A DNA stretch of 64,000 nt from Octopus vulgaris. Taxonomy: Eukaryota. How positions within the stretch are numbered: position 1 is the first letter of the stretch; each line of letters starts with the position of its first letter. Of the stretch, positions 5,289-58,415 are shown piece by piece. The DNA lies in assembly GCA_951406725.2 (NCBI GenBank), contig OX597828.1, positions 61,008,001 to 61,072,000 of the forward strand, given 5' to 3'. The notes beneath the pieces are model-generated. The model searched no databases. It saw only the letters and a list, made by a program, of their open reading frames with translations, and was not told the DNA's origin. A program made the translations under genes and the position numbers.

Positions 5289-7489
5289 AGATTATTGGAA
5301 GAGTAAAGGGAAAGCGTTGATTCTACTATTCCCCCCACCAAAAAAAAAGTACAGGAATCGATATCCTACAACCTTCTTGCCTCACCAGTCACCCTCTGCC
5401 ATTCAGGTGACTCAATATTTTCACCAAAATCACACAAGTATATTATTGTTTCATATATCGTCGAAACCTTGTTTATTACTTTCTTTATAGTTATTTCTTC
5501 CTCCTATTTTCACCAAGTCGATGAATCACCAATGGGATGCTAGCTATTGCTCATCTCCTCTCAGTACCTTCTTATGTTTTTACTGACAAATTAATTTTAA
5601 CGCCTGTATTTGGCCTTGATTTATTGCCATTGATTTCACCATGGATATTTTTGTTCTGCTTATGTGATTGTCGTTAGACTTTACTGGGGCAGCATCTGGT
5701 TTTGTGTAAATGCAAACAATTTAGTTAGATGTCGATAACACACAAACAGATATGGTGTTTGTATATTTTTAGATATACTTTATTGATTGGTAATTTGATA
5801 ACTGTATTTCTTTTTGAAGCTTTCTGGCTGCCTGTTTCTCATTGACGAATACATAAGCAAATTCAGGAAAGTAGACCACAAATAATTGCTTGAAGCCAAA
5901 AAGATTAATATCTCCACTGCCACCTTTATCAACATTAGCAACAAAACTCCACCTAAATACGACCATCACCACAACTACGAGCTGACTATGAAGCCTTCAC
6001 GTGGTCACTCGACCTGCTTAGAAATAGCTGCCAAATCTCCTTCAAACCATACTCTACTATCTTTAAAAAGATAGTCATCCTAGTTGGATCTTTTCGATTT
6101 GGCTGCCAAATCTCTTCAATTTTTATTCGAATTGCTTTTATATTCGATGTAATGATGTTGTTTTATTTGCTAATCAATGCCATGAAATTAATTTTCGCCA
6201 TAAACCAATAAATAAAGAGTTATTAGCTTTTAAAGTTTGCAAACGTTGGATAATTTTAGCTAATCACAAGCCACAAATACATTCATGCCTGTTTCCAAGT
6301 CAAACGAGAACTCTTTTGTCTGTGAGATAGCACGCGTTGACAAATATATTCTACGCGAAAGCATGTGCGTCGACGCTGTGTTCTGTTGCTTGTGGCCATC
6401 TGCTGCTTGTACCCTGGTTGAGAGATGTGTAAGAAATAACAAGCCAAATAGGCCTTAAATCACGCACCCACCATTCTTTTTCGCATACACGGGACTACAA
6501 AATAAGTTTCTTTTTTTTTTTTTTGTGTAACATTCTCAATAAACGATTAAAGGCAAAGTTTGGATAGTGAACCACCTACGGTAGGCTCTCGAAAATGACC
6601 TGCAGCTGTCAACAGACTTAAATAGTGTATGATTGTTTAATTTCCCGACAAAATGAATGCACATATTCTCGCTAAGTAGAAAGTGTATGCTCAGGAAAGT
6701 GCCTCTATGAGCTGAAAGATAAAATAGAACTCTTCTTTGGTTGATATCATAGACCACATAAATGATTTAAGTTTGAAATTACAAGGGTTCATTTAGCTAT
6801 CTTTTCCCCGATATCAGGAGCTTTATTCAATACTACAATTGTTCGCATGTCAACTGTAAAACAAAACAAACTACATGCAAATTTTGCAACACTGATGAGC
6901 ACTTCAATTTTAGTGGTTTGTTTCAGAAGTTTAAAGATTTACAAATTCATGAGGTACAAATATAAGAAACTTATTGCGATTTGATGCTAGATGAGCATTT
7001 TAATGTTGGAACTAGCCTTCTGATCTAGATAAAAAGTAAATTGTTTCATTAAATTTAACACATTGTGGTATTTTCTGTTTCGGCACTTAAAACAGTATAA
7101 CTATCAGGTTGATAAATGTATTGTGACATTTTGATGCATGTTGTTTAATGTGGTCGTACTTGAACTTGTACATTTTCAAAATATGCAATTTATCAAGATT
7201 TTATATGCTTTCAATCGTCCTTGTTAAGGTTAAGTCAATATAGTAGCTTAAACTACTAGAAATAACAGTTAAATTACTATCAAATTACATCCGATGCTTA
7301 GAAAGGATGCCCCTTGAATGCAGAAAGACAGAGTGACCCCCGATGGGTCATCTTTTGTCATAAGTTTCCTTCTTTAGAATTGACAGCAGGCTAAGCAATA
7401 ACAGCTACGACAATAACTATATTTCAATATTCGACTCTTCAGAGTAACTTGAGTGGTATTTCATTGATTATTTTCGCAGCTTACCTGAT

Positions 7490-8609: not shown

Positions 8610-9450
8610 TTTCAATTATTTCAACAGTTCTTTTCAAAATTATCTCAACAGGTCTTTTCAAAATAAAACTCTACTTACCATTTTATATAGTTCTTAATTT
8701 CCTCATAGTTCACCACTGGAGCGCTGGATTCGAAATTCACCTCGGGCCCCAGTGGGTTTATATCTGATGGGAAAGCCTCTTTTAACTTTCTGTACTTATC
8801 TTTTTCCATCAAAATCCATCTCGTCTTCTTATCGTAATCCTCCGAGAGGTCCACTTTAACAATGTCTTTTATTTTAGTTATTTTCCTTTTTATTTTTTGT
8901 GTCGACCGATGTTATCAAATATATTCTGTTCCTGTGTACCTCTTGCGTCTCTATGTCTGTGTGTTTATTTGTCTGCGGGTCTGTATGTTTGTGTGACTGT
9001 AAGTCTGCATGTTGTGTCTGTGCTTTCAGGTTCTGCGCTTTTAGGTTTCTGCAACTATATGTTATCTTCTACGCTTCCGTGTGTATGTATGTCTGTGAAT
9101 CTGTCTGCTTGTGCGATTGTGAGTCTGTATGTTTTTTTGGTGATGTTCTGCTTTTATCCTCTTTCCTCGGTAACCCCACTTGGTCCTAGATTTATATTTC
9201 GTTCCTTGTTCAACTTTCGGCGATGAGCCCCTCCTTTCTCAAAATCGGCTCTCTGTTCTTCTTCCTGTGTCTCTTTCCTCTCCTCTATCACACCTTCTTG
9301 CGCTTCCATTTCTATATTTTCCATTATTTCTGGGTACCTTCTTCTAATGTGATCTCTTTTGCCACATTCATAGCACTTTGGAGGTCTCACCACTGGAGTG
9401 CTGGGTTCGAAATTCACATCGGGCACCAGTGGGTTTATATCTGAAGAGCA
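8610..9450 (-). pseudogene. Second decayed ORF1 relic of the same family, inverted
   Basis: VRPPKCYECGKRDHIRRRYP. It shares nucleotide blocks with 7490-8600 (GATAAC...GAAACCTAAA; CCACTGGGGCC.GAGGTG). Confidence 0.65.
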
Positions 9451-9749
9451 AGATAGGGCTGTCGAGAAGTGTGTTTGAGGGAAGATGGAAAGCTGTGCTA
9501 AGAAAGGTGGGTGCAAGGGATCCGGCTTAAACGGCTTTGGAAAAAAGGAAGAAATAAAAGTAAGGAGTAGCCACTGGTCCTTTGAGGCAGCAGGGCATAT
9601 CCCTTACTGATATAGAAAAAGATTATATCATCATCAATATTTTTAAATAATAGGTATCATTCAAACACATCACAACATTTTTTGTATGCATTGTCCTGTG
9701 CTGCCCCTTCTGTGTATTGATCATTATGGTCTAAAAAATTTATGCTACT

Positions 9750-9790
9750 CCAGACTGATGATGAGTAATGATTCTGAAACTAGTCTCTGG
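9750..9790 (+). ncRNA. Minimal type-I hammerhead ribozyme motif (canonical core)
   Basis: CCAGA-CUGAUGA-uGAGU aaug AUUCu-GAAAC-UA-GUC-UCUGG. Stem I is a perfect 5 bp, stem III is the palindrome ACUAGU, and the stem II closing pair is mismatched (U.U). Confidence 0.75.
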
Positions 9791-10142
9791 TGCTGGCTTT
9801 GCTGAGTAGAGGCGCTTATCTCCCCCTTTGAAAACATAAGGACATAGAAAATGTGTCATGGTCAGCTGGAAACGCTGTTTCCTGGGGCTAAATACCAGTA
9901 GCATTCTTCCCTTTCATGGGACTGTCACATTAAATTGCCAACATGCCATCATTTGATTCGGCACTAGTCTTTATTCAGTACGACGATCGTTTTGACTCAT
10001 CTTGCAACTGCACATCATGGATAGGATTTTGTGCATCTAATAGTGTTGCATCAAACTGTGCAGTTTGTGTCTCATCAGGTACATGCATAAAAAAGGTGAA
10101 TGCCCCGATAGATACACTGAGATGTCCTAGGTATGTTGTTCG

Positions 10143-10188
10143 AGCCTGTTGTATCTTGATTATATATATAATCAAGATACAACAGGCT
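10143..10188. repeat. Perfect 46-bp palindrome centred on (TA)5
   Basis: AGCCTGTTGTATCTTGAT-TATATATATA-ATCAAGATACAACAGGCT. Confidence 0.95.
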
Positions 10189-10234
<46 letters not shown>

Positions 10235-10397
10235 GTTATCGCCATACTAATATGGCATTCTTATAAAAATAAGAAAAAAGCTGTCCGCTTATTAGCTCCA
10301 TGAGGCCATCACCTTAAGTTAGCTATTTGATACACAAACTGTATCCATATAACCTTCGAACAAGGGAGGTCAGTCGCTCCACACTACTTGACCGGCA

Positions 10398-10439
10398 GCT
10401 ACAGACGCGTTTCGGGGTATTGCCCCTTTTCAATGCAGC
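10398..10439 (-). ncRNA. Minimal hammerhead ribozyme A (U3-A8 core), inverted copy
   Basis: Exact reverse complement of 16365-16406. Confidence 0.85.
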
Positions 10440-10487
10440 GTAGCCAGCCAGTAGGTGTCGCTTCCGACAATCTCTGTTCGATGGTTT

Positions 10488-10533
10488 TATTTACCTAGTT
10501 TCGGTGGAATACATCCACTTGTTTTCAATAATA
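10488..10533 (-). ncRNA. Hammerhead-like motif B, inverted copy
   Basis: Reverse complement of 10896-10941. Confidence 0.55.
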
Positions 10534-10895
10534 GAAATATTAAAATAACTAAGTCTCTCTAAAAGAGAACAGCGGCAGCGTTCTCGGAAAATAATAGTTA
10601 TCGCCATACTAATATGGCATTCTTATAAAAATAAGAAAAAAGCTGTCCGCTTATTAGCGCGTCTGTAGCTGCCGGTCAAGTAGTGTGGAGCGACTGACCT
10701 CCCTTGTTCGAAGGTTATATGGATACAGTTTGTGTATCAAATAGCTAACTTAAGGCGATGGCCTCATGGAGCTAATAAGCGGACAGCTTTTTTCTTATTT
10801 TTATAAGAATGCCATATTAGTATGGCGATAACTATTATTTTCCGAGAACGCTGCCGCTGTTCTCTTTTAGAGAGACTTAGTTATTTTAATATTTC

Positions 10896-10941
10896 TATTA
10901 TTGAAAACAAGTGGATGTATTCCACCGAAACTAGGTAAATA
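10896..10941 (+). ncRNA. Hammerhead-like motif B (U3-A8 core, atypical insertions)
   Basis: UAUUa-UUGAAAA-caa-GUGGA uguau UCCAC-c-GAAAC-UAG-GUA-AAUA. Core and stem II are clear. Stem I is weak and there are extra nucleotides around stem II. Confidence 0.55.
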
Positions 10942-10963
10942 AAACCATCGAACAGAGATTGTC

Positions 10964-10980
10964 GGAAGCGACACCTACTG
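10964..10980 (+). repeat. Target-site duplication, left copy (17 bp)
   Basis: GGAAGCGACACCTACTG is identical at 16339-16355. A single empty-site copy is at 10449-10465 on the minus strand. Confidence 0.95.
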
Positions 10981-11197
10981 ATTTTTCCTTGGATTACGTC
11001 GGATTATTTTACGCTGTAAGCTGTTATGTTAGTTCGTTCTGTTCTGGATTTACACGTACAATTTTTGGAGTATTAACTTGTGAAACAAAGTAATTTTCGC
11101 CCTTCGGGGTAGAAAATTTCTTTTTATATATGAACTTTAATTCAGTGTGGATTTAATTTTTATCTTGTCTCTTGTGACAAGTCACTTGCATTTTATT

Positions 11198-12679
11198 ATG
11201 GATCTTGACTTAACGTCAAATTCTGATTTTCCCGAGATGGGAGAAGTTATAAAGCAAAAGGATACAAAGGAGAAACAAATTTTTTCGGAAGCCGTTGGAG
11301 GCAATGTTATAGAACTGGAAGTAACAATGGAGGATCTCTTCAAGTTCAGAAAGTTCATACAAAGGAATGGAGAAGAAACGAGAATAATACCGCCCCCTGA
11401 CACCTTACAAGCAATCCGTGAGAAGACGGTAATTTATAAGGTATATAATATTAAGGAAACAAAGATTGCAGATGTAAGAAATGAATTGGTAGAACGGTGC
11501 ATGGCACCAATTTGGAACAAGGTTCGCTATGTTGGCCGAGGAGTGAGAAGCGCTACTATTGAAGCGCATTTCGAGTCGGCTAGCATAGCGAAGGAAATTT
11601 CAACTCAAACGTTGAAGAGTGCAGACATCCTGTTGCTGCCCACGTACTTAGGGCGCAGAACAGCTAAGATAACAATAGAGGATATACCAACAGGTTACGA
11701 TGTAATGTGGGCAGCAACAGCGGTCGTATTCGACGTAGAAGAGAAATTAAACATTTTAAACATGAGGATGAAAGAGGCAAAATTTTGGAAAGGTCAGCAG
11801 CTTGAAATGATCGTTCAAGCTGACAATGCAACGCTGGAGAGTTTGCCAGACAGGGTCTTCGTGGGGGATGGACACACTGCGCGGGTATCGGTTGAGGGAC
11901 GTAGGCCCAGATGTTTCAAATGTGGGCAGAAGGGTCACGTCCGCTCAGAGTGCAAAAAGAAAAAACCCGTTAATGCCCCCATTCAAACCGCTGTGGAGAA
12001 CAAAGCAGACATCACAGCAACAACTAAAGAGAATACCCGGAAAAAGCAAAATGAAAGTCAAAAGGAGGAAAAGAAAATGAATGGAAAACAAAGCGAAAAC
12101 GAAAACGAGGTGGAAAATATTTTATCAAATGGAAAAGAACTGGAAGTAATGGAATATACGACTGTAACCAACAAAAGGAAGAAATCCAATACCCCGGACT
12201 CCCCACCCCAAACAAAAAGAAAAACAAACGCAGAAGAACAACACAAAAAAATTATCCAATCCCACCCCGCTGGCACTACTTTTGTAGGCCAGCATTTCAT
12301 TAAACCCCAGCCCCCAACTTTAAAAGGATTCAAAAAAACCGATAGGTGCATTGCTTATAACACAAAAAACGAGAGAGTAGTTTGGTACATAAAGGCGAAA
12401 CCAAACATAAAATGTTTCAAATCATCGGAAAAAAACCCGGATTGGAGGTATGCGAAGGTTGGAGAGGAGGAATGGAAGGAGAGACTCTTCCAACTACACG
12501 TGAGGGACAACCTGATTAAAGATGTCACACAAGAGGTGATAGCTGGAAAATTGAATATTAGCCCGGCAGCCACTCCATCCCAGAGCCCGGTGGCAACGCC
12601 GGTTAAATGCCCAGCAACAACGGAGAGTGTGGGGGAGGCAGGCAGACAAAAGCTGCCATGCTCCCTCTCACAACCGTAA
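11198..12679 (+). CDS. ORF1p, gag-like nucleic-acid-binding protein with CCHC zinc knuckle (493 aa from first ATG)
   Basis: VSVEGRRPRCFKCGQKGHVRSEC (CX2CX4HX4C), preceded by probable RRM-like folds and followed by a K/E-rich linker. The track start at 11147 is GTG; the first ATG is 11198. Confidence 0.9.
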   Translation: MDLDLTSNSDFPEMGEVIKQKDTKEKQIFSEAVGGNVIELEVTMEDLFKFRKFIQRNGEETRIIPPPDTLQAIREKTVIYKVYNIKETKIADVRNELVERCMAPIWNKVRYVGRGVRSATIEAHFESASIAKEISTQTLKSADILLLPTYLGRRTAKITIEDIPTGYDVMWAATAVVFDVEEKLNILNMRMKEAKFWKGQQLEMIVQADNATLESLPDRVFVGDGHTARVSVEGRRPRCFKCGQKGHVRSECKKKKPVNAPIQTAVENKADITATTKENTRKKQNESQKEEKKMNGKQSENENEVENILSNGKELEVMEYTTVTNKRKKSNTPDSPPQTKRKTNAEEQHKKIIQSHPAGTTFVGQHFIKPQPPTLKGFKKTDRCIAYNTKNERVVWYIKAKPNIKCFKSSEKNPDWRYAKVGEEEWKERLFQLHVRDNLIKDVTQEVIAGKLNISPAATPSQSPVATPVKCPATTESVGEAGRQKLPCSLSQP

Positions 12680-12703
12680 GTAACAAACTTTCTTCATTCA
12701 TCG

Positions 12704-15700
12704 ATGATTAAGTTGGGCTGTATAAATGTGCGTGGAATGGGGTCGAAATGGAAACAGGCTTGCTTGCTGGACGACCTCAGGACACACAGAATAGATGTAG
12801 CCATTGTCACCGAGTCCAAGATGAGAGGAACCCAAGCGTTCTCGCATCTTCTCAATGGTTACGAGAAATTTATTTCTCCTAGCCGAGGAGGAAGTGCAGG
12901 CGTGGCAGTCCTTATCAGGAAGAACTTGGACTTACAGGTAAGTACTGTCTTTATGGACCCAGAAGGTAGGCTGGTTGTCCTCGATGTAACTCACGTAAGT
13001 AAGCAGTCCTTCAGGTTGGTAGCTGTTTATGCTCCTAATGAGGGTAGGCAGACTGGTTTTTATCGGAACTTGGAGCACTTTCTAGTGACGTCTAAAACGG
13101 TAGTATTGGTAGGGGATTTCAACACTATCATCGATGCGCGGATAGATAGTGTGGGCTCGTCTGATAGAAGGGGGAATCCTTGCCTTAAGGGTCTACTGAC
13201 GAGCTTTAATCTAGTAGATCGGTTTCGAATGGATGAGCCGAGCATTCCACAGTGGACGTGGAGTAACAATGACGGCTCACGCAGATCGTATATAGATAGG
13301 GTATTTGTTAAAGAACGAGATAGGAATAGCATTAGCTGTCCACAATTTTGTATTGTGCCTTACACGGATCACAAATTAGTGACGTGTGAGGTACATGTAG
13401 ATAAATGCCATAGACAGGGACCCGGATACTGGAAAATGAACAAGTCTATTTTGGCTTGTGAAGCTTTCCGTAACCGGATTATGGAATTAGTCCAGAGGGC
13501 ATTATGTGGAACCATCATTAATAATAGATGGTGGATCGCCCTCAAAAGAGCCATCCGTTTGGAGTCCATTAGATTTAGCAACCAGCTAAGTTTAGATAGG
13601 ACTAGAATAGAGGGCGATTTAGTTAAGAACTTAGACGAGGCAATGGGATCTGGCTGTGCATCTAGAGTGTTAGCAGAGAGAACGATCTTGTACCGTCACC
13701 TCAATGCCAAGCATGAAGGATGTAGAGTCAGAGCTAAGCTACGTGCAGTGAAACGAGAAGGTATTAATGTTGCCGGATGGGCACGTCGTGTGGAGAGTCA
13801 GAAGGGCAAAAAGTCCTCTATTAAGTCTTTAACTGACGAACAGGGACGCAAAATCTATGGACAGGAGGAGATACAGAAGGTCTTTCAACAGCATTTCGCT
13901 CGGTTGTTTGGGGAGGGCGATCCACTCGAGCGAGGGGAGGACTTACAGAACTTCCTAGCTGGTGGGCCTCGGCTCTCGCCAAGCAGAGCGGAACGCTGTG
14001 AAGGACCGATTACTCCCGCGGAGGTAAGAGGGGTTTTGGCTGAATGCGCCCGGGAAAAGTCGCCGGGACTGGATGGTCTGCCCTATGAGTTTTATTGTTG
14101 TATGCCGGACTTGTTCGGGGACATACTGGCAAGCGTCTACGCAAACTGGCAACAGAATGGGAGGATTCCCAGTTCTGTGAGCCGGGGAGTTGTGACGCTG
14201 ATCCAGAAAGACCCGAGCAAGGGGGATAATATTAGTAATTATAGGCCCATAACTCTACTTAATGTAGAGTTAAAGATTTTGGCCAAGGTGTTAGCAGAAA
14301 GGTTGAAGGTCGTCATGGAAAAACTTGTCGGAAAGGCACAGACATGTGCAATCCCAGGCAGGTCGATCGAAGATAATCTTCACCTTCTACGCTACACTAT
14401 AGACAGGGTTGGGCAATTAGCCGGCAAAGGAGGGGCATTGGTCCATTTAGACCAAAGTAAAGCATTTGATAGGGTAGATCATCAGTACCTGGCGACGGTT
14501 CTCGAAGCGGCTGGGCTAGGTCCTGACTTTCGCGGGTGGATATCAGCTATGTACAGCGGTATCAAGTCCACAGTCCAGATAAACGGTTACTTAACGGAAC
14601 CGTTTTCGATTAAGCGTTCAGTTCGTCAAGGATGTCCCTTGTCCCCTCTCCTGTACGTTTTGGCTCTTGAGCCATTGCTGCGGAAGTTGGAGACGGTGAG
14701 ATGCAATCCTAATGAAATCGGATGCGGTAAGTCTGTTTCTGCGTATGCGGATGACGTCACCTTCATCGTGTCCAACGAAGCACAACTAACTCGTGTAGAA
14801 GGTGCTCTCCGAAGATACGAAGCGGTGGCTGGGGCAAAAGTTAACAAGGACAAGTCCACTGGTTTGCGCCTCGGCACCTGGAGGAACAAGCCGATATCGT
14901 CCAGTGTTGTTGGACACTGGACAGATGGTCCTGTTAAATTGCTTGGAGTTTGGTTTGGTTCAGACTCCCAGACGGAGAAAAATTGGAGCGAGGTAGTGAC
15001 CAAGGTAGAAGCCATAGTTCGGGAGTGGTCCGGAAGGCATCTTTCCTTGAAAGGGAGGGCGGAGGTGGTACAGGTGTTTATAGCATCTGTAATCACCTAT
15101 CGCCTGACTGTCGTGCCTTGCCCCGATTTGTGGCTAAGCAAGTTGGATCGACTCCTTTTCCGCTTTTTGTGGAAGGGAGGAAAGCCACTTGTAAGGCGCT
15201 CCGTGTGTTGCCAGGAACCACTAAAGGGTGGGCTGGGGATGCCTTGGTTAATGATGCGCAGGCATGCGCTGAGACTGAGACATCTCTGGTTTCACCTGGA
15301 AGGTGATAAGGTGTGGAGTCCGCTGGCAGATAATTTCTTCCCGCAACCGGACTCTATGGAGAGATTTAAACCCGGTTTCATTAAAAGACGGAACCTGACT
15401 TTATGGCAGAAAGAGTGCCGACAGGCACTCTGGCTGATCCACAAGATAGGCAAAGCCGGCTGCGGGAATACCACCTCGACATTTTATAGAAGGATGGTAG
15501 AGGCAAAAAATGACGACGTCCTAAGAGGGTCTCTGGGGTTCGATGAGGATCAACTATCCGACCTGTTTAAGAAGACTTTCAAGCCGGGGTATTTGGACAA
15601 TTACCAAAAATCCCTGACTTGGCAGTGCTATAGGAATGCTCTACCTGTTCGCGATAAGTTATATAGGCATGGAATGTCAGTGCCACCGACATGTCCAAGA

Positions 15701-16102
15701 TGTGGGTTGGACGATGAAACCGTCCAGCACGCTTTTGTACATTGTCAGGAGCTGTCAGGCTTAATAAGTTACGTAGAACACGTGTTGTCGCATCTGGGAC
15801 GAGTACAGCTATCGGCTGGTTCTATAATAAAGATGATACCGCCAGCTGGACTCTCAAAGGAAGGTGAGGCTTGTTTTCACTGTACGGTGGCAGTACTGAA
15901 AGAGTGTGTGTGGAGAACTAGATTGGAAGGTTTGGTGTCAGGAACCTTTGTCTCTGGATATGGTATGTTAAAATACTTCAGATACCATCTAAAGAGCAAG
16001 ATGGATTTAGAGAAGAGGAACCTGACACAGAAAAAGTATGTGAATCGATGGAAGGATGTGATAAAAAAGGTGGGTGTGAGTAACCCTGCTTGGTCATCAT
16101 GA
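12704..16102 (+). CDS. ORF2p: apurinic-like endonuclease, reverse transcriptase and C-terminal CCHC (1132 aa)
   Basis: EN motifs INVRG, VTESK, VYAPN, GDFN, YIDRVF, TDH. RT motifs KSPGLDG, YRPITLLN, DQSKAFDRV, RQGCPLSP, YADD. C-terminal CPRC-x8-H-x4-C. Confidence 0.97.
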   Translation: MIKLGCINVRGMGSKWKQACLLDDLRTHRIDVAIVTESKMRGTQAFSHLLNGYEKFISPSRGGSAGVAVLIRKNLDLQVSTVFMDPEGRLVVLDVTHVSKQSFRLVAVYAPNEGRQTGFYRNLEHFLVTSKTVVLVGDFNTIIDARIDSVGSSDRRGNPCLKGLLTSFNLVDRFRMDEPSIPQWTWSNNDGSRRSYIDRVFVKERDRNSISCPQFCIVPYTDHKLVTCEVHVDKCHRQGPGYWKMNKSILACEAFRNRIMELVQRALCGTIINNRWWIALKRAIRLESIRFSNQLSLDRTRIEGDLVKNLDEAMGSGCASRVLAERTILYRHLNAKHEGCRVRAKLRAVKREGINVAGWARRVESQKGKKSSIKSLTDEQGRKIYGQEEIQKVFQQHFARLFGEGDPLERGEDLQNFLAGGPRLSPSRAERCEGPITPAEVRGVLAECAREKSPGLDGLPYEFYCCMPDLFGDILASVYANWQQNGRIPSSVSRGVVTLIQKDPSKGDNISNYRPITLLNVELKILAKVLAERLKVVMEKLVGKAQTCAIPGRSIEDNLHLLRYTIDRVGQLAGKGGALVHLDQSKAFDRVDHQYLATVLEAAGLGPDFRGWISAMYSGIKSTVQINGYLTEPFSIKRSVRQGCPLSPLLYVLALEPLLRKLETVRCNPNEIGCGKSVSAYADDVTFIVSNEAQLTRVEGALRRYEAVAGAKVNKDKSTGLRLGTWRNKPISSSVVGHWTDGPVKLLGVWFGSDSQTEKNWSEVVTKVEAIVREWSGRHLSLKGRAEVVQVFIASVITYRLTVVPCPDLWLSKLDRLLFRFLWKGGKPLVRRSVCCQEPLKGGLGMPWLMMRRHALRLRHLWFHLEGDKVWSPLADNFFPQPDSMERFKPGFIKRRNLTLWQKECRQALWLIHKIGKAGCGNTTSTFYRRMVEAKNDDVLRGSLGFDEDQLSDLFKKTFKPGYLDNYQKSLTWQCYRNALPVRDKLYRHGMSVPPTCPRCGLDDETVQHAFVHCQELSGLISYVEHVLSHLGRVQLSAGSIIKMIPPAGLSKEGEACFHCTVAVLKECVWRTRLEGLVSGTFVSGYGMLKYFRYHLKSKMDLEKRNLTQKKYVNRWKDVIKKVGVSNPAWSS

Positions 16103-16338
16103 AGGGAGAAAATAGTCTCTGGGCTCTTAGGCTGTCGGGTAAGAATCCTGACTGTGATATATCTAGCTGGCCAAAATCATTTTTAATTTTAAAAAAAAAG
16201 GAGAAAAGTAAAGTCTAGTATCATAATCAATAATCAACATATGTAAATATCAAACGAACAACGTAAACTTTTTGTAATTATGTTTTGTATTGTAATGTAC
16301 TATCTCTGTAAGATTTTTATAATCATAATAAAGATTTA

Positions 16339-16628
16339 GGAAGCGACACCTACTGGCTGGCTACGCTGCATTGAAAAGGGGCAATACCCCGAAACGCGTC
16401 TGTAGCTGCCGGTCAAGTAGTGTGGAGCGACTGACCTCCCTTGTTCGAAGGTTATATGGATACAGTTTGTGTATCAAATAGCTAACTTAAGGCGATGGCC
16501 TCATGGAGCTAATAAGCGGACAGCTTTTATCTTATTTTTATAAGAATGCCATATTAGTATGGCGATAACTATTATTTTCCGAGAACGCTGCCGCTGTTCT
16601 CTTTTAGAGAGACTTAGTTATTTTAATA

Positions 16629-16634
<6 letters not shown>
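16339..16634 (+). mobile_element. 362-bp hammerhead repeat, continuation after the LINE (right TSD 16339-16355)
   Basis: Matches the inverted copy and 10658-10897, and ends in (AT)n at 16635. Confidence 0.9.
16365..16406 (+). ncRNA. Minimal type-I hammerhead ribozyme A (U3-A8 core)
   Basis: GCUGCA-UUGAAAA-GGGG caaua CCCC-GAAAC-GC-GUC/UGUAGC. It has a 6-bp stem I, 4-bp stem II and palindromic stem III ACGCGU. The predicted cut is after 16400. Confidence 0.85.
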
Positions 16635-16659
<25 letters not shown>

Positions 16660-20929: not shown

Positions 20930-22330
20930 GTTGCGGTCTAAGAAGTCTAGTATGGAAAGGTAAAACTCGTAGGGCAGATCCCCGAAATTGAACGGTTTTC
21001 GTTACCTCGCGTCCTAGAGCACGCACCTTAGTCCTGGTAATGCAGCTTTCTTCCTTAGCATTGAAGAATTGGTCGAAGGACAATTTAACCGCGAACATGT
21101 CAGTTGCGATGACTTTCCCAAGCGTCACTTTTAAGTGTCTAACTAGATTTATCTCCCTTTAAAAAAATTCTCTATCACTACGATCTTACTTAAGCTATTC
21201 GATTCTACTGTAATCGCTCTTTTTAGGGCGAACCGCCATCTGTTGTTGACGACTGCCCGCATTAACGTCTGCTGAACTAATCCACTAATCCAGTCTCTGT
21301 AATCTTGGCACTCGAGAGCAACGTGTTCAGCTTTCCGTAACCGAGTTCCCGCCTATAATGCTTATTTAGGTCGATCTTACAGATCCATAACTTATGGCCT
21401 GTGTAGCCGACGATTTTAAAATGGGACATGTCTAAGTGACTCGAAGTGTCGAGGGGAATTTCTCTGGGGGTCATTCAGTTTTTATTTTGCTGTGTTATTT
21501 GTAAGCTTCCAGCTGCTGGTGTTGTTGGTGGTGTGGCGGCTCTTGAGGGTAGTGTTTTATTTGTTTTAGTTGTTGCTAGTTCCACTCTTTGTATTGTGTC
21601 TGCTGTTTTTGTTTCCACTGATGCTGCTACAACTTTTTTGCAGTTTGTTGCTATCATTATATGCTGTCATTGGTACTGCTAATGTTGCTGTTATGATGAT
21701 AGAGTCGGTAGAAGTGAGGGCCCTTCTCTCTTCTCCTTTTCTGTGGATAGAAAAACGAGATGGTTTGTGTCACCACGGAAGTGACTCATCAACCTTGTGT
21801 CCTCAACTGACACGTATAGTTTTGTGCTATTTGGCAGACTGGTTAGGTCTGGGATGGATTCCGTGGTTTGCTGATCCATTTACATTAATAACTACATTCT
21901 GCAAAATATTAGTTTTGACCTCAATGTCGACGAAGAAAACCGTCACTAACTGGATGTTTACTTCTGGGGCACGCTGACTTTCATTATTTGTACCATTCTA
22001 CTGGCAAGGTAGATTGGTATGAGGATCAGTTCATCACTCATTAGGGTTGTTGTGGAGTATTTCCTGGCCTCATCCTCTCTAAAGAATCTCATACCTACTG
22101 TATGGTACATTTAGTCTGAGTCATTTACTTTTGTGTCGCCTGGTCTATTTTACTACTTTTTGTTGAGTAGATTTTGTATACCACAATTTTGAGAGTTGTT
22201 TCTTACCATATGAATTCTGGTATGTTGAGCTTAACAATTTATTCATATCATGTATGTTTTGGCATTTTAAGATTCTTATATTTGGCGAACAACGCCTGCG
22301 AACTCATCAACGCTAGACTTGCGTGCGAGG
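20930..22330 (-). pseudogene. Decayed Tx1-like element (ORF1 remnant plus ORF2 EN/linker piece)
   Basis: GYTGHKLWICKIDL and NNRWRFALKRAIT align with PYTDHKLVTCEVHV and NNRWWIALKRAIR of the intact ORF2. SIPDLTSLPNSTKLYVSVE is ORF1-like. Confidence 0.75.
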
Positions 22331-22678
22331 TGTCATGTCTACGTTTTTTTGAGTTGATGTTAATGGTGATGGTGGCGGCAGAGGTGAAATGTGCAGGTGT
22401 GCTGAGGTGACATTTCAAGTTTTTGCTTTTCTATCTACGTTCTCATTCTTGCTGTGGGTTTGGTTGTATTCATCTTTGTTCATGTTGTTTTCATTTTCCT
22501 TGTTGTTGTTTTCTTGTTATTGCTGCTGCTGCTGTCGCAGCTGTTATGATCAGTTAGCAATGGTGGTTGTAATCGCATTCCTTGGACAGTTTGACGAAAA
22601 ATTCCACACCATATTTGTTTATTTAAAAAATCGGTAAATGCTATAAAACTACAGAAAATCCCATTTGAAGAATGATGA

Positions 22679-25600
22679 CTATACTTGCTCACCGTGAAGG
22701 AAATGTTGGAGATGTCGCTGCCTCAACACATGTCTGCGTACAATTAACCACGACATACTCAGTCCCCCACTCAGCGGATGCTGACAGCAGATAGACCTTT
22801 TGACAAACGGAACACGTCCCCTCCACAGAAATAGGAAGAGCAAGTGCTCCATTTTGATCAGCGACGAAGCAGGGATAGGGTCAGGCAGCAGTAGATGACG
22901 GAAGCTATGAAAATCCTTGGCCAAAATCTTTTAATATGCGTTTATCAGAGTTATGGGCCTAAAATTATCTATATGAATCCCCTTGTTCGAGTTCTTTATC
23001 AGCTGCACCACTACACCATAGCTTACAGCACTGTGAATTCCCCTGTTCTGTTGCCAGGTGCGGTAGACATTCGCTAAGTGATCACTGAATAAGCCTGGCA
23101 TATGAAGGTAAAGCTCGAATGATAGACTATCCAGCCTCTTGGGTATCTACTCATCGTGTCAAGTATTTCTTCCGTATTCCTGGCCGATAGGTGCGGCATA
23201 CCGTCGAAGTAGGAGGTGAAATTCCCTCTCATCACTGACCCAAAGCATTCTCCGTACAGTTCAGCAAAGTGCCGCAAAAACATTCCACACACATCTGCTT
23301 GGTTTCGAGTAGCAAGAGCCCATCCTGGCCTGTCAAAGATCGAATGTTGGCTTTTTTCCACGTTGCACCTCTGCCACCTGGGTCCATCGAACGAACGGTT
23401 TTTATTACATCGTGTCTTAGGACACGCACCCTAGCTCTAACAACACATTTGTGCTTGGCATTGAAGAATTTGTCAAGGGACCATATCGCCGCCAGTACGC
23501 CAGTCACTATGTCTTTTCTAATCGTCTCTTCAAGATTCCTAACTAGGTTTCCCTCTATCCTAAATTTCTCTAACGTTATCGCTTTAACTAAGCTCAAACG
23601 TCTCTACTCTAATATACCATCGGTTGCTGGCGATTGAAACCAACAACTTCCGATGGACTAATTTGTTAAACCGGTCTTTGTATACTTTATGCGCCTAGAA
23701 GGAAGCGTTCACATTCCAGTGTCCGGGGTTCTACCTATAGATCCTATCTAGGTCAACCGTACAGGTCACAAATTTGTCGACTTTGAATTGTGGACAATTT
23801 ATGCTACTTCTGTCTACAGCCCTATAAAATACTCTACCTAGATACGATCTGGAAGACCCGATGCTGGTTGCCTATGTTCTCATTGGCGTATTCGAAAAAT
23901 CCAGTCGGGACCTGACAGCCAATTGGAAGCGATTGAGCAGGTTTGTGAGACTTTTACACTCCTTCACTCCTATCGTCTAACCCCATCCTATCCAGGCCTT
24001 TTCTAAACAACATTGCCACCCTACTCCCATTTCAGGTCGAGCTAGAGATGCGTAGATCTCAAAGTTGTTAAAAGTGGGGACTAGTGAGCGCATGTTCGAA
24101 TATTTGGACTCTCTGGCGGCTATCACGTCCAACCTGAGTGACCTGAAGTCATTGAACAAGTGATTTTGCTTCTGGGACCTCCCTAGGCCACGAACATTTA
24201 TGCAACCTACTCTAATAATTGCCATGTTGGCCGGAAAGATTTGAGAAAAAGAAAAAAAAGCGGGGTTACTAATCCTCCCTGTGTTGTTGGTGGCCGGGTG
24301 GCCCGACCTTCGGCTGTAGTTGGGTTTCTTCTGGGAACGCCTTTAAAAGTCCGTTGGTGGCTTTTACATTAGAGGAAACCTATTTAATGTTTTTATATAT
24401 TGTTAACGGCACGCGCACTAGCAATAGCTTTTCTGACATTTTAAGCATACTGGTGTCATATATTGTACTTCGTCTCTCAATTTCTTTATTTCGAGCTCTG
24501 AGGGCCATCAAATCTTTGTTGGCTCTTCTCATGTGCAAGAAATTTGGAGCCTGTGTGGTTGACTGTTCTTTTGTATGCTTTCCTTTTCGGGTGAGGTAGG
24601 GTTGCGATCGTGTTGGTTATACTGGTGATAGCCGTGTTGGTTGTGTTCATAGCTGTGAAATGGATGAGGTTGGTGCTATTGTCGACGCGACTGTGCCTGC
24701 TGTGAGAGCGATTTCTGCATCATCCAATGAGTGTGCCGGTGCGAGGCCGGTTCTTTTTTCCTCCTTTCTTATATTTTAGGTTTATAGGGTTCTTCTTCAT
24801 TTTCACTTCGAGATGTGAAGAAACTAGAGTCTGTATGTCCGTCTCAGATATAGGCCGGTGTGTGTTTGTGTTTATGTGGGTGTCTATGTGTGAGTGTGTG
24901 TTCGACAGAAGAGGAAATGGAGAGTTGGGTTGAGGAATGCCCTGGGTGGTCCTCTCTGATGATATTTTTGTCGATGGTGGTGGTGACAGTGGTGGTGTGG
25001 TGCTGGTGGGGCTATTGTTATTATTACAGCTACTGCTGCTACCGCTGCTGGTGCTGCAAGTCTTGTCACCGCTGGAGACGCCGATACTGCCACTCTCATT
25101 TTCGGCATCGTGAATCTTTTCTTGTGGTGGTGTGATTTTTCTTGCAGTAGCCACTGTTGCAGTTGTTGCTGCATTTTTCTTGCTTTATTGTGGATATTGT
25201 TGTAGTTTTGCCTATTAAGCCAGCAGCAGGGCCCTTCTTTCTCCCCTTTTGTTTTTGTTGTGTGGGCAGAAAACTCGTGGATGATCCGCCATTCCACAGA
25301 CATGGCACTTCGGTTGTCTGCCCGCCACACTCAGTCTAAACTCTATTCCATTCGGCAGGGATATCAGGTCTGGGATCCTCTCCAGTTGGTCTGGCTTTAC
25401 ATATAGAAGCACTTCCAGAGTGATCCCAGTCCAGTTCGTTTTGATCTCTTGGTCTCCAGGAGAGTTTCACTCTCGACCAGTCCCACACAAGCGAGAATCC
25501 ACCACAAATCTAGTTCTGGTGGTACCCCTTGTATGGTAATTTTCACCACTCTTCTTTAAAAATATGTAGGGGAAAGTATGAAGTGTTGGAATGCCACGGC

Positions 25601-25750
25601 CTCAGTCTTGAATAAGACTTCGACCCCGCCGAACTGCTTACAGAGAAAGTTTTGAGGGATTACTTTTCTTTCACCGTTTTTCATGCATGCTTCCACCCCT
25701 CATCGTGATCGATGTTGGTTACCAAAAACCAGTTTTTTACATTACTTCGG
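22679..25750 (-). pseudogene. Decayed Tx1 element: ORF1, ORF2 EN and post-RT piece (RT core deleted)
   Basis: RLSVAGRQPKCHVCGMADHPRVFC knuckle; ORF2 start at 24225 IRVGCINVRGLG; FLWRGRVPFVKRSICCQHPLSGGL. Many frameshifts. Confidence 0.9.
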
Positions 25751-25759
25751 TGTTTAGAA

Positions 25760-26640
25760 AATTTGTTCAATTTGGAAACAAGATCAAAAGTATCCCGAAT
25801 GTAGGAACATGATCTTTTAGCTACTGGGAGTAAAAAGCCAGCCAGTCAACCATTCTGAAATTTTAGCAGTGCAACATTCATACCCACTGCAAATTGAGTG
25901 TAAAGGAGGAAATTTTTCGAAATTTTTACGTATTTTTGGAAGACCATAAAATACAGGTGTTCTTTCTGAACGTAATAGCTTAGATTTCGTGTCATTTATG
26001 AAATTCTTTTTCTCCATTTCCAAAATTATTTTATCAAGTTCCTCTCTGAGGTTTGGATCTACAGGTAGTTCTTCATAAGAAGTTTTGTCTCTTAAAACTT
26101 CTTCCCAAGCTGAAACGTACTCGTCTTTCTCTATGATTACAATAGCGCCTTCTTTATCCGCCATTTTGATATCAATAGAATCATTGTTAACTGTTGGCAA
26201 CGGAGTGCGCTACGCAGGGAATCCATAAGGTTATTCCAGCTCTTTTTCTTACAGGTGTTAAGACTTTCTCAAATTCCTGTCTGAAAAGATTCGATAAATT
26301 CCAACAGTGCTTGTGAACGTCCCTCCCGAACTTTATCCGGATTCCAATTTGGATTCTTTAAAATCCAATTATGCCAGATCCGATCATCATCATCATTTCT
26401 TTCAACAAACATGTGGATTTTTGACCGCCCGTTACCAATTCTTTCGAAAAAAGAAAAAATGCTTGAGGCTTGTGACGGCGGACAAACTGATATATTCCTT
26501 GTGTTAATTTATTTTTGTCAAAATTGTTAGTGTTTGGGTAAAAACTTAAGTCCAAGTTCTAAGAAACAGATATCATCTGGCGAAAGTTTTAACTTTGATA
26601 AATTTATTACCGTCTTATTTTCTTACATGGTTGATTTTCT
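25760..26640 (-). pseudogene. Penelope-like element, N-terminal RT region relic
   Basis: VINLSKLKLS...LELGLKF, ADKEGAIVII, FYGLPKIRK and SYIRDT are PLE RT N-terminal motifs. Confidence 0.85.
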
Positions 26641-26679
26641 TGGTCCAGCATTTTCCCCAGCGTTACTTGCATCATATAT

Positions 26680-28770
26680 TTTACTCTCATTTTGGGGGGC
26701 TTATGAGAGGGACAATACAAAACAGAATGATATGTGGGGGTTTACATATAATGAAATGATAAAATAAATGAATAATAATAAAAGAAGAGATTAAGTATAC
26801 ACAACATATAGTGAAAAGGAAGGGAAATATACAGAGAATACAAAGTTTTACCAAAAAAGGTGGGTGGGAATGATAGAAATATAGACCTCTTGATGCAAGA
26901 TGACCTCTAGGGATAATCGAGGAACCCCACTGTCCAAGCTCTCCCTAAACACTAAGAGCAAGTGCCCTCTCCAATTCCCTTTCTCTGACTCACAGGTCTA
27001 CACTTAGACAGGTACCATTTACTCTTGCCATTTTGGCAACTTTCACCTACCTTTCAGTAAAATCACCGTAGGACAGCACCTCCCTCTCCATCCTCACTTT
27101 CCTTTCCTTTTCAAGTAAAACTTGAAGAAGTCAATGAGACCTCTACCAAAGGGGAATGTATCTGTCCTCATGCCTTTCAGCCTCGTTCACCAGGCAACCT
27201 CTTTCGCCACAGCTACCAGGCAGGGAAAACTGACTTGCTTGACCGATTAAAGGAGGGCGGCGAGGCAATCATCACCAGGAACTCGGCCGATAGACGGATC
27301 CGTCCCACTCGGGACAGACAGTGATCGACATAATCCCCACAAATCAGCTGAATGAGTGCGTGCAGAACGGTTTCGTTAATCTGCGCGTGCATCGGACAAG
27401 CCCGTCTGACAGTACGCCCGTGCCTGTAGAGTTTATTTTGTACCAGTAGAGTTTATTTCGTACCAGTAGCGCCCCTCGGTAGCACTACCAGGCCAAAGAC
27501 ATATGGAAATTATCCATTATAGTTCCCAACCGAAAACTTCTCCGGAACAGGCTGGCAAGTTAGTCTTTGTCGACGCCTAGGGTCTCCCCGAGAACGTCGT
27601 CACACTTCCTCGCCACTAATCCTCTAAATTGCTAAAGAGGAACTTTCTCCAATGCCATTTCCCGACTGGTAGAGGGCTGAAAGCGCCTGACGACATTCTA
27701 GGTGCCAGACGTCCAGTCTCGGTCTTTTCTTCACTCAGGGCTGCAGCTGCATCAAAGAGACGAGCTGCAGAAAGCTGTCTCACGAACGGAGCCCACACAC
27801 GCTCACTATCCAGAAACCGTTGCAGGTGGCGCAACCTAAGAGCGTGTCTGCGCATTAGAAGCCAAGGCATACCCAATCCGTCAGTCAGAGGGTGCTGGCA
27901 ACAGACTAACCACCTGATCATTGGGACGTCTCATTTCCTCAAGAAATTAGATAGGAGACGCTCCAACTTGGTCAAGCAATAACCTGGACAAGGCACGACA
28001 GTCAGACGATAAATGATAACGAAGGCGATGTAGGCATTCGTCACCTTTGCCCGACCTTTCAGGGGCAGCTTCCTCTCAGGCCATTTCTGAGTAAGACTGA
28101 CCACCCTATTTATCACCTCGTCCCAGTTCTTATCCACCTGGAGGTCGGGACTAAACCAGACCCCGAGCGGTTTAGCTGGTCCGTCGGTCCAGTGTCCGAC
28201 GACGCAGTCTGATGGCATCGACCTGGCTCTCCAGGAGCCCAGCTAAAAACCCATCGATTTGTCGGCGTTGATTTTGGCCCCTGCAACCGACTCATATTCC
28301 CCTAGAATGGAGCCGACCGTCTCTATTTCGGAGACGTCCGACACCATGACGGTGACGTCTTCTGCGTACGCCAACATTGCCCTTCCGTATGCCCCCTTAA
28401 CTGTTCCAACTTAACTATTCCGCAGCAGTGGCTCGAGAACCAATACATACAGAAGAGGTGACATTGGGCAGCCCTGATGAACTGAGCGTGCGCTGCTAAA
28501 CGGTTTCGATAGGTGACTGTTTACTTTGACCACTGAACAGGTGCAGCAATCCAGCCTACGAAAACGGATCCGAAACTGCCTCCTTCGAGGACGGCTTCCA
28601 AGTAGCGATGGAGGGACTCTATCAAATGCTTTGGATTGATCCAAATTGATAAGAGCATCCACGAAGTAAGCTTTGGTCTCAGCTCTCTCTATGATGTATA
28701 ACATAATGTGGAGGTTGTTAGGGATAGACCTATTCGAGATTGCGTACGTTTGGGCTTCCCCGACTAGGCT
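26680..28770 (-). pseudogene. 5'-truncated decayed Tx1 element (RT to 3'UTR)
   Basis: LDQSKAFDRV, SVHQGCPMSPLLYVLVLEPLLR, VVGHWTDGP and LGMPWLLMRRHALRLRHL closely parallel the intact ORF2. Confidence 0.92.
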
Positions 28771-38128: not shown

Positions 38129-38328
38129 ATACATATATCCTATCACCTATACAGGTGCTTACATTTATCAAGTATTCACCCTGAATTTATTGTACCTATA
38201 TATATATATATATATATATATATCAGTCCCACTGCGTGGCACCTTGGGCAAGTGTCTTCTACTGTAGCCTCGCGCCGACCAAATCCTTGTAAGTGGATTC
38301 GGTTAACGGAAACTGAAAGAAGCCCGTC

Positions 38329-38368
<40 letters not shown>

Positions 38369-38470
38369 GACGGGCTTCTTTCAGTTTCCGTTAACCGAAT
38401 CCACTTACAAGGATTTGGTCGGCGCGAGGCTACAGTAGAAGACACTTGCCCAAGGTGCCACGCAGTGGGA

Positions 38471-56100: not shown

Positions 56101-58415
56101 TAAGTTAAGTTAAGTTAAGTTAGTTCTTTGGCTCAAAAAGCAAGGCCATGTAGGGGGACATGAAGTTATGTACAGGGTGGTGTTCATGCAAAGAGTTCAG
56201 GCCATTTGTGGTCAAGGGAGACTTTGAACCGAGCGGTCGTCGGCATCTTCACTATCTCGTCCGGCAGCTTATTCCACGGATCCACAACCCGGACGGAGAA
56301 AGCCCCTCTCCTTCGATTGAGATGAAATCGTCGCAGATAGAGCTTTTCGAAGTGACCCCGCAGCCGACGTTCTGAAGCAGGAGTGAAGAACAGCTCTTTC
56401 GAGAGGTTACACTTTCTGCTTATGATGTTGTGAGCAAAAATGAGATCACCACGGCGTCGTCGTTTTTCTAGAGAATAAAGGTCGAGCGTCTTCAGCCTTT
56501 CTTCATAAGACAAATGCTTGAGACCAAGAACCATGCGGGTAGCCAGCTTCTGGACTCTTTCGAAACGATGTATGTCTTTGAGGAGATAAGGGGAAGAGGC
56601 TTGAATCCCGTACTCCAATATGGGGCTCACCAGCGTGACATAGAGCGGTAGGAATATGGCTGCTGTGAGCATTCTGAATCAAAAACAGAACTCCGCGTGC
56701 TTTGTTGGCAGCATGGACGCACTGGGCCGAAGGCGAAAAGGAAGAATCCACTAAGCTACCCAGGTCCTTTACCTGGTCGGTCCTCTCCAGCAGCAGACGA
56801 CCCGGCTCGAAATCAAGTTGAGTTGCAGGACAAGAGCCAACAGGCAGATGACAGCACTTTGACACGTTCAGACACAGGTCCCATTCGTTAGACCATCTCC
56901 AAACTTGGTGGAGGCATCGACGAAGATCCTCTGTATCACTGCGAGGAGCGACCAGTTTGACATCATCGGCAAATAGAAGGGTGTGTTGCATGAGTTCGTT
57001 GGGCAAGTCATTTATGAAGACTATGAACAATAAGGGCCCAAGCACTGAACCTTGAGGCACGCCACTGCTCGCACTGGAGACGTTGGACCGCGAGCCATTA
57101 ACTTGGACTTGGAAGGAGCGATCTGAGAGGAAGGCACCAACCCATCGTACAATATCCGGATGGAAACTATATGCTTGAAGCTTGACAAGTAATAGGCGGT
57201 GGTTTACCGAGTCAAAATATTTGGCAAAGTCCAATAAAACGATGTCAACAGCATCACCATCATCGAGGATACGCGTCACCAATTCTTCCATTACCAGTAA
57301 GTTGGTCAAGCATGATCTCTTCTTAAGGATGGTTTCGAACATCTTGCTGATTATTGAAGTATGGGAAACCGGTCGGTAGTTAAGCGGGTCTTCGCGGCTC
57401 CCTTTCTTGAAAATTGGGCAGATTATCGCTGTTCTCCAGTCCGCAGGTATAACACCCATCGCCAATGACATATTGAATAGAAGTGTTAAAGGCTCGCAGA
57501 TGAACGGAGCCAATGCTTTGATAACCTGTGGGTGTATGCCGTCAGGGCCGTGACCCTTGTTGACATCGAGGCCTTGAATAACGCGTTCGACTTCGTCCCG
57601 CGTGATGACCAATCTAAGCATTGGAGGTACCGATTTATCAAATGGAGGGGGTTCACGACCATCACCTTGTTTGAAAATAGTTGAAAAAGCCTCGGCAAAT
57701 AACTGACTCTGTTGATAAGGGTCCTCAATCGATACGCCTGTTGAGTCTGCCAACGTTGCGATTTGGTTGTTCAAGCGGGAATTCCGTTGGACATCGGCAA
57801 AGAAGGTTTTTGGATTGCGACTGGCGTTTGCCGTATTCATATCTGAAGCGTTCTTCCTTTTCAATTTTCACGGCTCGGTCTCGTTGAGTTTTGTACACCT
57901 CAAAAGCTGCAGTCGAATCTAGATTTTTGAATTCAGCCCAAGCAATATCTCTGAGTCGAAGTTCTCGTTTAACCTTCTTCGTCACCCAGGGCTTGTGTTT
58001 CTTCTTGGGAAGCCCAACGGGAACTGCTTGGTCAGTCAACCAGATTACATATGCTTTGAGGGACGACCATAGTTCGTCAATTGAGGACATCGTCATCAGG
58101 GATCGCCAGTCCAGAAGCCTCGATTAGAATTTCAAGATTGATTGCAGAGAAGACTCTACGTGGCAGCGAAGTAGTCGTGGGCGTAGAAAAAGTTGTGTGC
58201 ATGACGAACTTCAGGACCGCATGATCACTCTTGGCAAGAGGGGCGCACACAGATACGTCTGACACTGATCTTGGATAGCGGGAGAATACCAGATGCAGCA
58301 TAGATGGCTGCTGCCCAGACCGATGCCTTATCGGATATTCAACGTGTTGCGATAGAAAACAATCTTCAGCCACGTCAAGAAGGACCTGGCCGAACCGGGA
58401 AGATGATGTACAAAT
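56101..58415 (-). mobile_element. CR1-clade LINE, 5'-truncated and frameshifted, inserted in a SINE
   Basis: KSDH (EN end), GPDGIHP, NYRPVS, SGVPQGSVLGPLLF, FADD and RRRRGDLI...WNKLP, with an (AACTT)n 3' tail. SINE halves lie at 55829-56097 and 58430-58520. Confidence 0.93.

Follow-up and report, generated by a model that had tools for sequence, protein, structure and literature searches.

The LINE and its host repeat in the Octopus vulgaris window

We have examined a 64,000-nucleotide stretch of the Octopus vulgaris genome (contig OX597828.1 of assembly GCA_951406725.2, positions 61,008,001 to 61,072,000; hereafter the window), in which a full-length long interspersed element (LINE) of the Tx1 type lies within a repeat that carries a predicted hammerhead ribozyme (Table 1). 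The host repeat has a period of 362 bp and is represented here by one inverted arm and a direct arm that is split by the LINE, all within (TA)n. A preliminary description, made from the sequence of the window, had reported an intact LINE with two open reading frames (ORFs) and a perfect 17-bp target duplication in a 362-bp repeat, and these are borne out by the ORFs, their domains, the identical 17-mers, and the host period; the empty target site that it also noted is real, but is on the minus strand, within the inverted arm. The element has the layout of the Tx1 clade, with two ORFs, a zinc knuckle in ORF1, and endonuclease, reverse transcriptase (RT), and a C-terminal zinc region in ORF2, and relatives about 30% identical to it show a Keno-like insertion in U2. 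The named matches of its RT come from Ciona (a pol-like protein, 27%) and Chlorella (an RT, 25%), with no named Tx1 reference among the matches, and protein clusters bore no names; the comparison, with a quick tree only, holds no named Tx1 reference such as Tx1L or Keno.

Table 1. Positions of the LINE, its host repeat, and associated motifs in the window (nt, nucleotides; aa, amino acids; snRNA, small nuclear RNA; PSE, proximal sequence element)
Feature	Position	Strand	Basis or remark
(TA)n microsatellite, left flank of host insertion	10188–10231	.	host ends in (TA)n at most loci surveyed
Inverted host arm (unit 170–362 then 1–237); complete empty promoter-target-hammerhead unit pointing left	10229–10658	−	
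Copy of hammerhead A in inverted arm	10398–10439	−	mirror of 16365–16406 via inverted repeat
Empty target site	10449–10465	−	
Direct host arm upstream of LINE (unit 57–362)	10658–10963	+	
Motif B: hammerhead core letters without closing stem I, probably inactive	10901–10937	+	
snRNA-type promoter-like element (candidate PSE), core at −57 from insertion point, within motif B	10906–10919	+	function inferred
Target duplication, 5′ copy, 17 bp, predicted first 17 nt of host transcript	10964–10980	+	start site inferred
Full-length Tx1-type LINE, without poly(A) tail	10981–16338	+	
ORF1, open, 493 aa, zf-CCHC (zinc knuckle)	11198–12679	+	ORF and domain search
ORF2, open, 1132 aa: apurinic-type endonuclease, RT, zf-RVT	12704–16102	+	
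AATAAA	16327–16332	+	6 nt ahead of LINE end
Direct host arm downstream of LINE (unit 1–300)	16339–16638	+	
Target duplication, 3′ copy, 17 bp, identical to 5′ copy	16339–16355	+	
Predicted type I hammerhead, A: U3-A8 core, helix III palindromic, cut expected after 16400	16365–16406	+	fold and pair counts
(TA)n microsatellite, right flank	16635–16659	.	

Family 1 inserts repeatedly at one site of the repeat

The proposal that this family targets ribozyme repeats had been drawn from a single insertion, and it is upheld by a tabulation of the flanks of other copies, which are not unrelated to one another. Within this one genome, in which the specificity is replicated, a pattern joining the LINE 3′ end to the target 17-mer occurs 21 times (control, 0); all 21 of these 3′ ends, which define family 1, adjoin the same 17-mer of the 362-bp host, at 16 loci on 10 contigs. 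The empty target site occurs at least 1,099 times (control, 0), with about 2% of sites filled. A search with the LINE 3′ end, in which 40 of 534 candidates were scored, gave 41 matches, and among the 30 loci read, 20 adjoin the target, nine belong to a sister family, and one lacks the end. A pattern blind to the flank finds 26 3′ ends of the lineage, 21 at the target and five starting ATA like the U1 family described below, its final letter excluding flanks with a C there, including the U1 flank. With 21 of 21 family 1 flanks in a single repeat, and 15 of 30 in the family 3 search below, both shares exceed the 20% by which PMC4494074 recognizes a target-specific element.

Sixteen of the 21 copies begin at nucleotide 1 behind a 17-nt duplication, and the other five are 5′-truncated, with duplications of 17, 10, 0, 0, and 0 nt (a 4-nt match at locus L041 is counted as chance and its duplication set to none). 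Seven copies keep both frames open, and divergence ranges from 0.5 to 19 changes per kb. We conclude that family 1 inserts at one site of the host repeat, repeatedly and independently, because the LINE at L035 is young, has a duplication of its own, and sits in a host variant that is older, the inverted arm of L038 contains a 70-nt LINE copy that also has its own duplication, and arrays of LINE-duplication-LINE are present on contig C2; two of the five truncated copies have duplications. We reject an assembly artefact, given the many contigs and the graded divergence, as well as chance duplication, and segmental duplication as the main source, since each locus has its own host layout.

It is conceivable that there were few insertions, and that a host-LINE-host composite was then spread by Penelope-type machinery of the host. 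The two direct arms and one inverted arm in the window are the layout of a host gene moved in trans by a Penelope element (PMC3846280), most copies are full length, L037 and L038 have a common host and related LINE haplotypes, and L032 is cut within the LINE and joined to an inverted host arm by a 7-nt overlap, like the host inversion joints; some loci, L032 for example, may indeed have moved as composites. However, the truncated copies with duplications of their own and the arrays on C2 speak against this view, LINE and host variants sort separately (L035, L043, and L044), no family 1 copy was found away from the target, and the sister families are each in their own host. Hitchhiking may cover some loci but not the specificity, and as a general explanation we regard it as very unlikely.

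The hammerhead and its host repeat

The predicted cut of hammerhead A falls 62 nt past the LINE 3′ end, and that of a second motif, B, after 10937, 43 nt ahead of the LINE 5′ end; both distances are confirmed as first described. Hammerhead A has a stem I of 6 bp and a stem II of 4 bp (−11.8 kcal/mol for both stems), and its fold has z scores of −3.9 with flanks and −1.8 without. Among nine hammerhead rows from several host families, the pair type varies at every position of stem I, the 3-8 pair is C-G in six, U-A in two, and U-G in one, and helix III is palindromic in seven; these rows were selected by a descriptor requiring stems I and II, so that paired fractions there are circular, and 3-8 pairing and palindromes were not required. 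Pairs were counted by script on the nine rows, as an automatic alignment of 13 hammerheads placed helix III wrongly. Hammerhead A is thus a predicted ribozyme that is well supported by structure and covariation, and its U3-A8 core has been reported earlier (PMC4209133). The start of the hammerhead core is at +32 to +35 from the insertion point in the window repeat (host 1), at +33 in host 2, and at +25 to +31 in other hosts. No complete hammerhead A lies upstream of the LINE on the plus strand of the window, where the direct arm begins at unit position 57. No Rfam hammerhead family has a match in the window, nor in the regions around A and B, and the Rfam matches in the window are microRNA-type models on microsatellites, all below gathering scores.

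The host has the layout of retrozymes lacking long terminal repeats (non-LTR retrozymes), with non-coding tandem units of 150–450 bp and a type I hammerhead in each, here as dimers to pentamers of the 362-bp unit. In a survey of 30 loci, which represent 26 distinct places and include the window, its outer ends cluster at unit positions 233–240 and 296–300 beside (TA)n, with tandem and inverted arms. Its arms are laid out as in Penelope-derived non-LTR retrozymes, which also have a type I hammerhead whose helix III is palindromic, and the host appears to be an element of this kind, presumably mobilised by a Penelope enzyme. No autonomous Penelope partner was found among the ORFs of the fetched loci, 10 ORFs having been searched against Pfam. 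A short frame about 100 bp past a host 2 copy (L097:6892–7263) has no Pfam match, and has what we take to be a Penelope-like RT motif.

A unit-to-unit join in contigs of sequencing run X1 was considered as a sign of circular host RNA and rejected, as the same join occurs in X16 and X18; these contigs, from four of 24 runs, are of uncertain kind, yield no starts or ends, and have no bearing for or against expression. One contig (X15, record 9) starts on the host side of the LINE 5′ joint, 30 letters in and one short of the rule for bridging it. Perfect palindromes lie next to or centred on (TA)n at 10143–10188 and 38303–38394 of the window.

Motif B and a promoter-like element

R2 carries its own ribozyme; that near the window LINE belongs to the host and lies 3′ of the element, with a role that is predicted at most. 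No ribozyme family was found by Rfam in the LINE 5′ region (10780–11200), and the element bears none of its own that would make an RNA 5′ end as in R2, motif B being host sequence that folds poorly. The preliminary description had proposed that B and A both cut a read-through transcript, leaving a LINE RNA of near unit length. The two motifs have the same unusual core letters, the helix III arm of B self-pairs weakly (−4.6 kcal/mol, and −7.5 for A), B is as conserved as A in young host 1 copies (69 of 81 and 76 of 90 identical, respectively), and the 16 full-length copies have exact 5′ joints. However, B has no inner stem I pairs, and an A-C mismatch and extra letters at the base of stem II, such that neither stem closes on the core; its hammerhead arrangement is at +0.3 kcal/mol, with z scores of −0.9 and −1.25. 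The matching region of hosts 2–5, read by eye, keeps a promoter-like word and has lost the catalytic core, the U1 family needs no ribozyme, and hammerheads of this sort usually need a partner copy, single minimal ones being uncleaved in vitro (PMC4209133). Release by two ribozymes is therefore quite improbable, and the 5′ cut is unsupported, since a predicted transcription start accounts for where the LINE begins. On the 3′ side, cleavage by hammerhead A is possible, and bearing on it are the U1 family, which works without a hammerhead, and the AATAAA just ahead of the LINE end.

Motif B most likely overlies an snRNA-type promoter element, a candidate PSE. A conserved element lies about 55–60 nt upstream, as in the U1, U2, and U5 genes of the same genome, and ATCA is at −56 to −59 in 36 of 37 of these snRNA genes (24 U1, 2 U2, and 11 U5; the set excludes L159 and a partial L204). 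With a matrix made from snRNA genes only, host 1 position −57 ranks first of 724, scoring 10.0 compared with 4.4 for the next, and a fraction of 0.0012 of window slots scores as high; the same matrix matches eight other host flanks at −57 to −60, with window fractions of 0–0.027. An unanchored motif search, which set seven U1 genes off by 3–4 nt, finds the same motif. From the snRNA gene comparison and the parallel with U1, the point of LINE insertion is the predicted transcription start (+1) of the host, at 10964, and because T-runs start at nucleotide 2 of the LINE and also occur in the host, the promoter would be of the polymerase II type. Host read-through transcription, which the preliminary description had invoked, gains support that is indirect, from the element at −57 and from a full-length U1-family copy (L082, below) that begins with U1 nucleotides 1–17, neither more nor fewer, at a site other than U1.

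We note that in hosts 2–5 (L188, L190, L191, L185, and L203), at about −56 to −38 from the target, the promoter-like element forms one arm of a short palindrome, within which changes compensate for one another, and an A-run comes next; no such palindrome is seen by eye in the U1, U2, and U5 elements, and it may be a relic hammerhead stem. In the flank upstream of the L043 LINE, clustered changes remove the motif B stem and GAAA, and the upstream half of the promoter-like word is mostly kept.

Sister families insert at other hammerhead repeats and at U1

The sister families use the corresponding site in other hammerhead repeats, and one of them uses nucleotide 1 of U1. Family 2, the ORF2 of which is 95.5% identical to that of family 1, is the U1 family: the 3′ flank of L049 is a complete U1 gene from nucleotide 1, eight of nine flanks match U1 over the first 3–17 letters, and L082 and L145 begin with U1 1–17. 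At L082 the 5′ end is exactly U1 1–17 but the sequence on the 3′ side is not from U1, and the simplest reading is that the RNA of this copy started where U1 does. Family 3 has an ORF2 that is 81–87% identical, and among 30 loci read from a search with 41 matches, 15 are in a second hammerhead repeat (two of them likely one duplicated event), one is in a third, and 14 are elsewhere; of 13 read among the latter, 10 begin with 3–5 letters of the family target, three of these loci probably being one event. Sites of this second repeat, host 2, number at least 115, and it aligns colinearly to host 1 with 58% identity. Further families (L191, L194, L195, L197, L200, and L203) end in yet other hammerhead repeats. 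Among the LINE 3′ ends collected in these searches, none has a U2 flank of the Keno kind.

Several side observations concern these sites. At L186:6330–6390, L197, L201, and L096:5300–5360, another LINE family has its 3′ end against the same start sites, directly before family 3 or later elements, the L186 piece being only about 31% like ORF1, and several LINE lineages appear to compete for one site. L082 lies between two facing U2 genes (L082:101–294 and 6685–6878), and family 3-like ends are found within other LINEs at L113, L115, L116, L199, and L200, three of them at sequence resembling the start of ORF2. Host 2 sites at C20:10316920 and C25:33562413 and 33657664 are between two U1 genes and less than 0.3 Mb from a U5 cluster, which may be chance.

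Possible roles of promoter, RNA tail, and endonuclease in the choice of site

We consider it probable that this lineage of target-specific, Tx1-type LINEs is a parasite of snRNA-type transcription units, with a borrowed promoter, its read-through RNA probably helping in the choice of site. Insertion would occur at the host transcription start, about 57–60 nt behind the PSE-like element, and would duplicate host +1 to +17; the host promoter would then yield an RNA composed of 17 host nucleotides, the whole LINE, and more host sequence, the tail of which could base-pair with the target strand once this is nicked, so that reverse transcription would be primed exactly where the LINE ends. Such priming would account for precise junctions, for the absence of poly(A), and for off-target sites whose appearance is specific to the family; in R1Bm, downstream target sequence on the RNA aids exact priming (PMC7265360; PMC4494074). 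The RNA 3′ end would be made within host sequence, either through polyadenylation just past the terminal AATAAA, a motif that most 3′ ends of the sister families retain, or through cleavage by hammerhead A at +62.

A number of points weigh against this interpretation. The unanchored promoter search is weaker than the matrix, the host 1 score being reached by nine of 500 shuffles and those of the other hosts by 3 to 96 of 500; the matrix is anchored on a word picked after the data were seen, its host 1 score leans on one distinct U2 site, and the hosts are homologous, as hosts 1 and 2 illustrate, and are not independent witnesses. L082 is the sole full-length copy off target, and since 17 nt are duplicated at L035 as well, where the LINE is truncated, stagger alone can produce this length. 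There is little target likeness in one of nine family 2 flanks and three of 13 family 3 flanks, and off-target likeness fits an endonuclease preference and RNA pairing equally well.

An alternative is that each family's endonuclease reads its own target, with an internal LINE promoter and a proximity to the host promoter that is incidental or mildly helpful. The Tx1L endonuclease nicks almost exclusively its own target (PMC1950540), and target choice is described as being set mainly by the endonuclease (PMC4494074). In a comparison that was made without full-length copies of several family 3 and host 3 elements, endonuclease residues 113–115 vary by family (EGR, GCG, and GRG), which keeps a protein model alive for families 3 onward, and residues 28–29 and 41–43 set families 1 and 2 apart from the rest; a quick tree likewise places these two together (99), apart from the remainder. 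However, families 1 and 2 have the same residues 113–115 despite unlike targets, with only three endonuclease changes common to both family 2 copies (D23N, R26M, and M84L). The hairpin loop that probes target DNA in the L1 endonuclease (PMC1950540), mapped to residues 185–195, does not vary in 12 of 15 other copies, over four types of target, and all of the targets are at one distance from the PSE-like element. We therefore think it unlikely that specificity is coded by the endonuclease in this way.

The parasitism of snRNA-type units could be taken further, with a target that is not encoded in the endonuclease: the promoter would bring the lineage to snRNA-type starts, and pairing of its own read-through tail, trimmed by the host hammerhead or by polyadenylation, with nicked DNA would select the site, such that a copy in a new unit inherits that unit as its target. 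We advance this only tentatively, as a possibility that is less likely than not; if true, the lineage would be a self-programming, RNA-guided LINE preying on ribozyme retroelements, which would explain its spread over several retrozyme families and U1. Families 1 and 2 provide a natural test pair, being 95% identical in ORF2, with three endonuclease differences and unlike targets that share only their position behind a promoter-like element, and swaps of endonuclease or RNA tail between them would test protein, RNA, and promoter as the site determinant. An understanding of how a target-specific LINE selects its site, and moves to a new one, would be of use in site-specific gene insertion.

Relation to known elements

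Mutsu in 5S and Dewa in tRNA spacers are sequence-specific Tx1 elements. Described Tx1 targets include DNA transposons, LTR elements, U2, U5, 5S, satellites, and microsatellites (PMC4494074, PMC4640811, PMC8869645). The preliminary description knew of no LINE like the present one, and we found none targeting hammerhead repeats or U1 nucleotide 1 in the literature searched, which was largely without subscription papers and Repbase; the 'satellite' targets of PMC4494074 (Fig. 3 and supplements) might include one. The lineage appears to be a variant of the target-specific Tx1-type elements for which the hammerhead retrozyme is a new target.

The closest parallels differ in their targets. Tx1L of Xenopus (target Tx1D) and the crocodilian Tx1-Mar, Tx1-9_AMi, and Tx1-8_Crp are, like the window LINE, elements with two ORFs and an apurinic endonuclease that insert within another mobile element at a constant position (PMC4494074). 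Their targets are DNA transposons or LTR elements, whereas the window lineage inserts, in several host families, at what is predicted to be the transcription start of a non-autonomous retroelement that bears a ribozyme. Keno in U2 and other snRNA-targeting Tx1 elements resemble the lineage in inserting into snRNA-type units, and the metagenome relatives L222 and L218 show the same inside-U2, A-tailed pattern; Keno-type insertions are inside the gene and A-tailed, whereas here +1 to +17 are duplicated, there is no tail, and the snRNA branch uses U1. The snRNA gene targeters listed in 2015 are only Keno, Utopia, Dada-U1, and Dada-U6 (PMC4640811, in the available part). R2 and R1Bm, in 28S ribosomal DNA, resemble the proposed mode in depending on host transcription and in having downstream target sequence on the RNA (PMC4494074, PMC7265360).

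On the host side, metazoan non-LTR retrozymes and derivatives of Penelope pseudo-LTRs (pLTRs) have similar tandem units of about 360 bp, type I hammerheads, palindromic helix III, the U3-A8 variant, and inverted arms (PMC7229834, PMC4209133, bioRxiv 10.64898/2026.07.22.740005); term look-ups in the available parts of PMC7229834 and the bioRxiv report gave no mention of LINE targeting or of an snRNA-type promoter of retrozymes. Newt satellite 2 is, like the host, a hammerhead satellite, and is cited as having an snRNA-type polymerase II promoter (PMC2220036). The present findings add hammerhead retrozymes as a target class, with a retrotransposon living in a non-autonomous retroelement, as well as a LINE specific for the U1 start, and suggest that snRNA-type promoters drive retrozymes well beyond newts. 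We know of no LINE that targets newt satellite 2.

Metagenome relatives and decayed elements in the window

Among metagenome relatives of the LINE (80 of 84 kept, mostly 22–35% identical, and 20 scanned with Rfam) no retrozyme targeting was seen, and there was no hammerhead in the 332,438 bases scanned. Three of their snRNA matches seemed to start at model position 1 and were rejected, two being Keno-like insertions inside U2 and one a partial U1 match 1.4 kb from the ORF. A distant relative (29% identical) has about 30 nt of the U1 5′ end ahead of it and an A-tail (L216:76–105), and is a LINE inside U1.

Within the window, an old LINE 3′-end remnant (9430–9900; 72% to family 3) runs into a host 2-like repeat, with a canonical hammerhead at 9748–9792, about 13 nt past the apparent end of the remnant; this is a decayed second joint of LINE and retrozyme, about 350 bp from the one described above. 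On the minus strand, at 20964–28767 and 56506–57867, are degenerate fragments of related LINEs, which match ORF2 at up to 56%, together with a separate RT frame of 454 aa.

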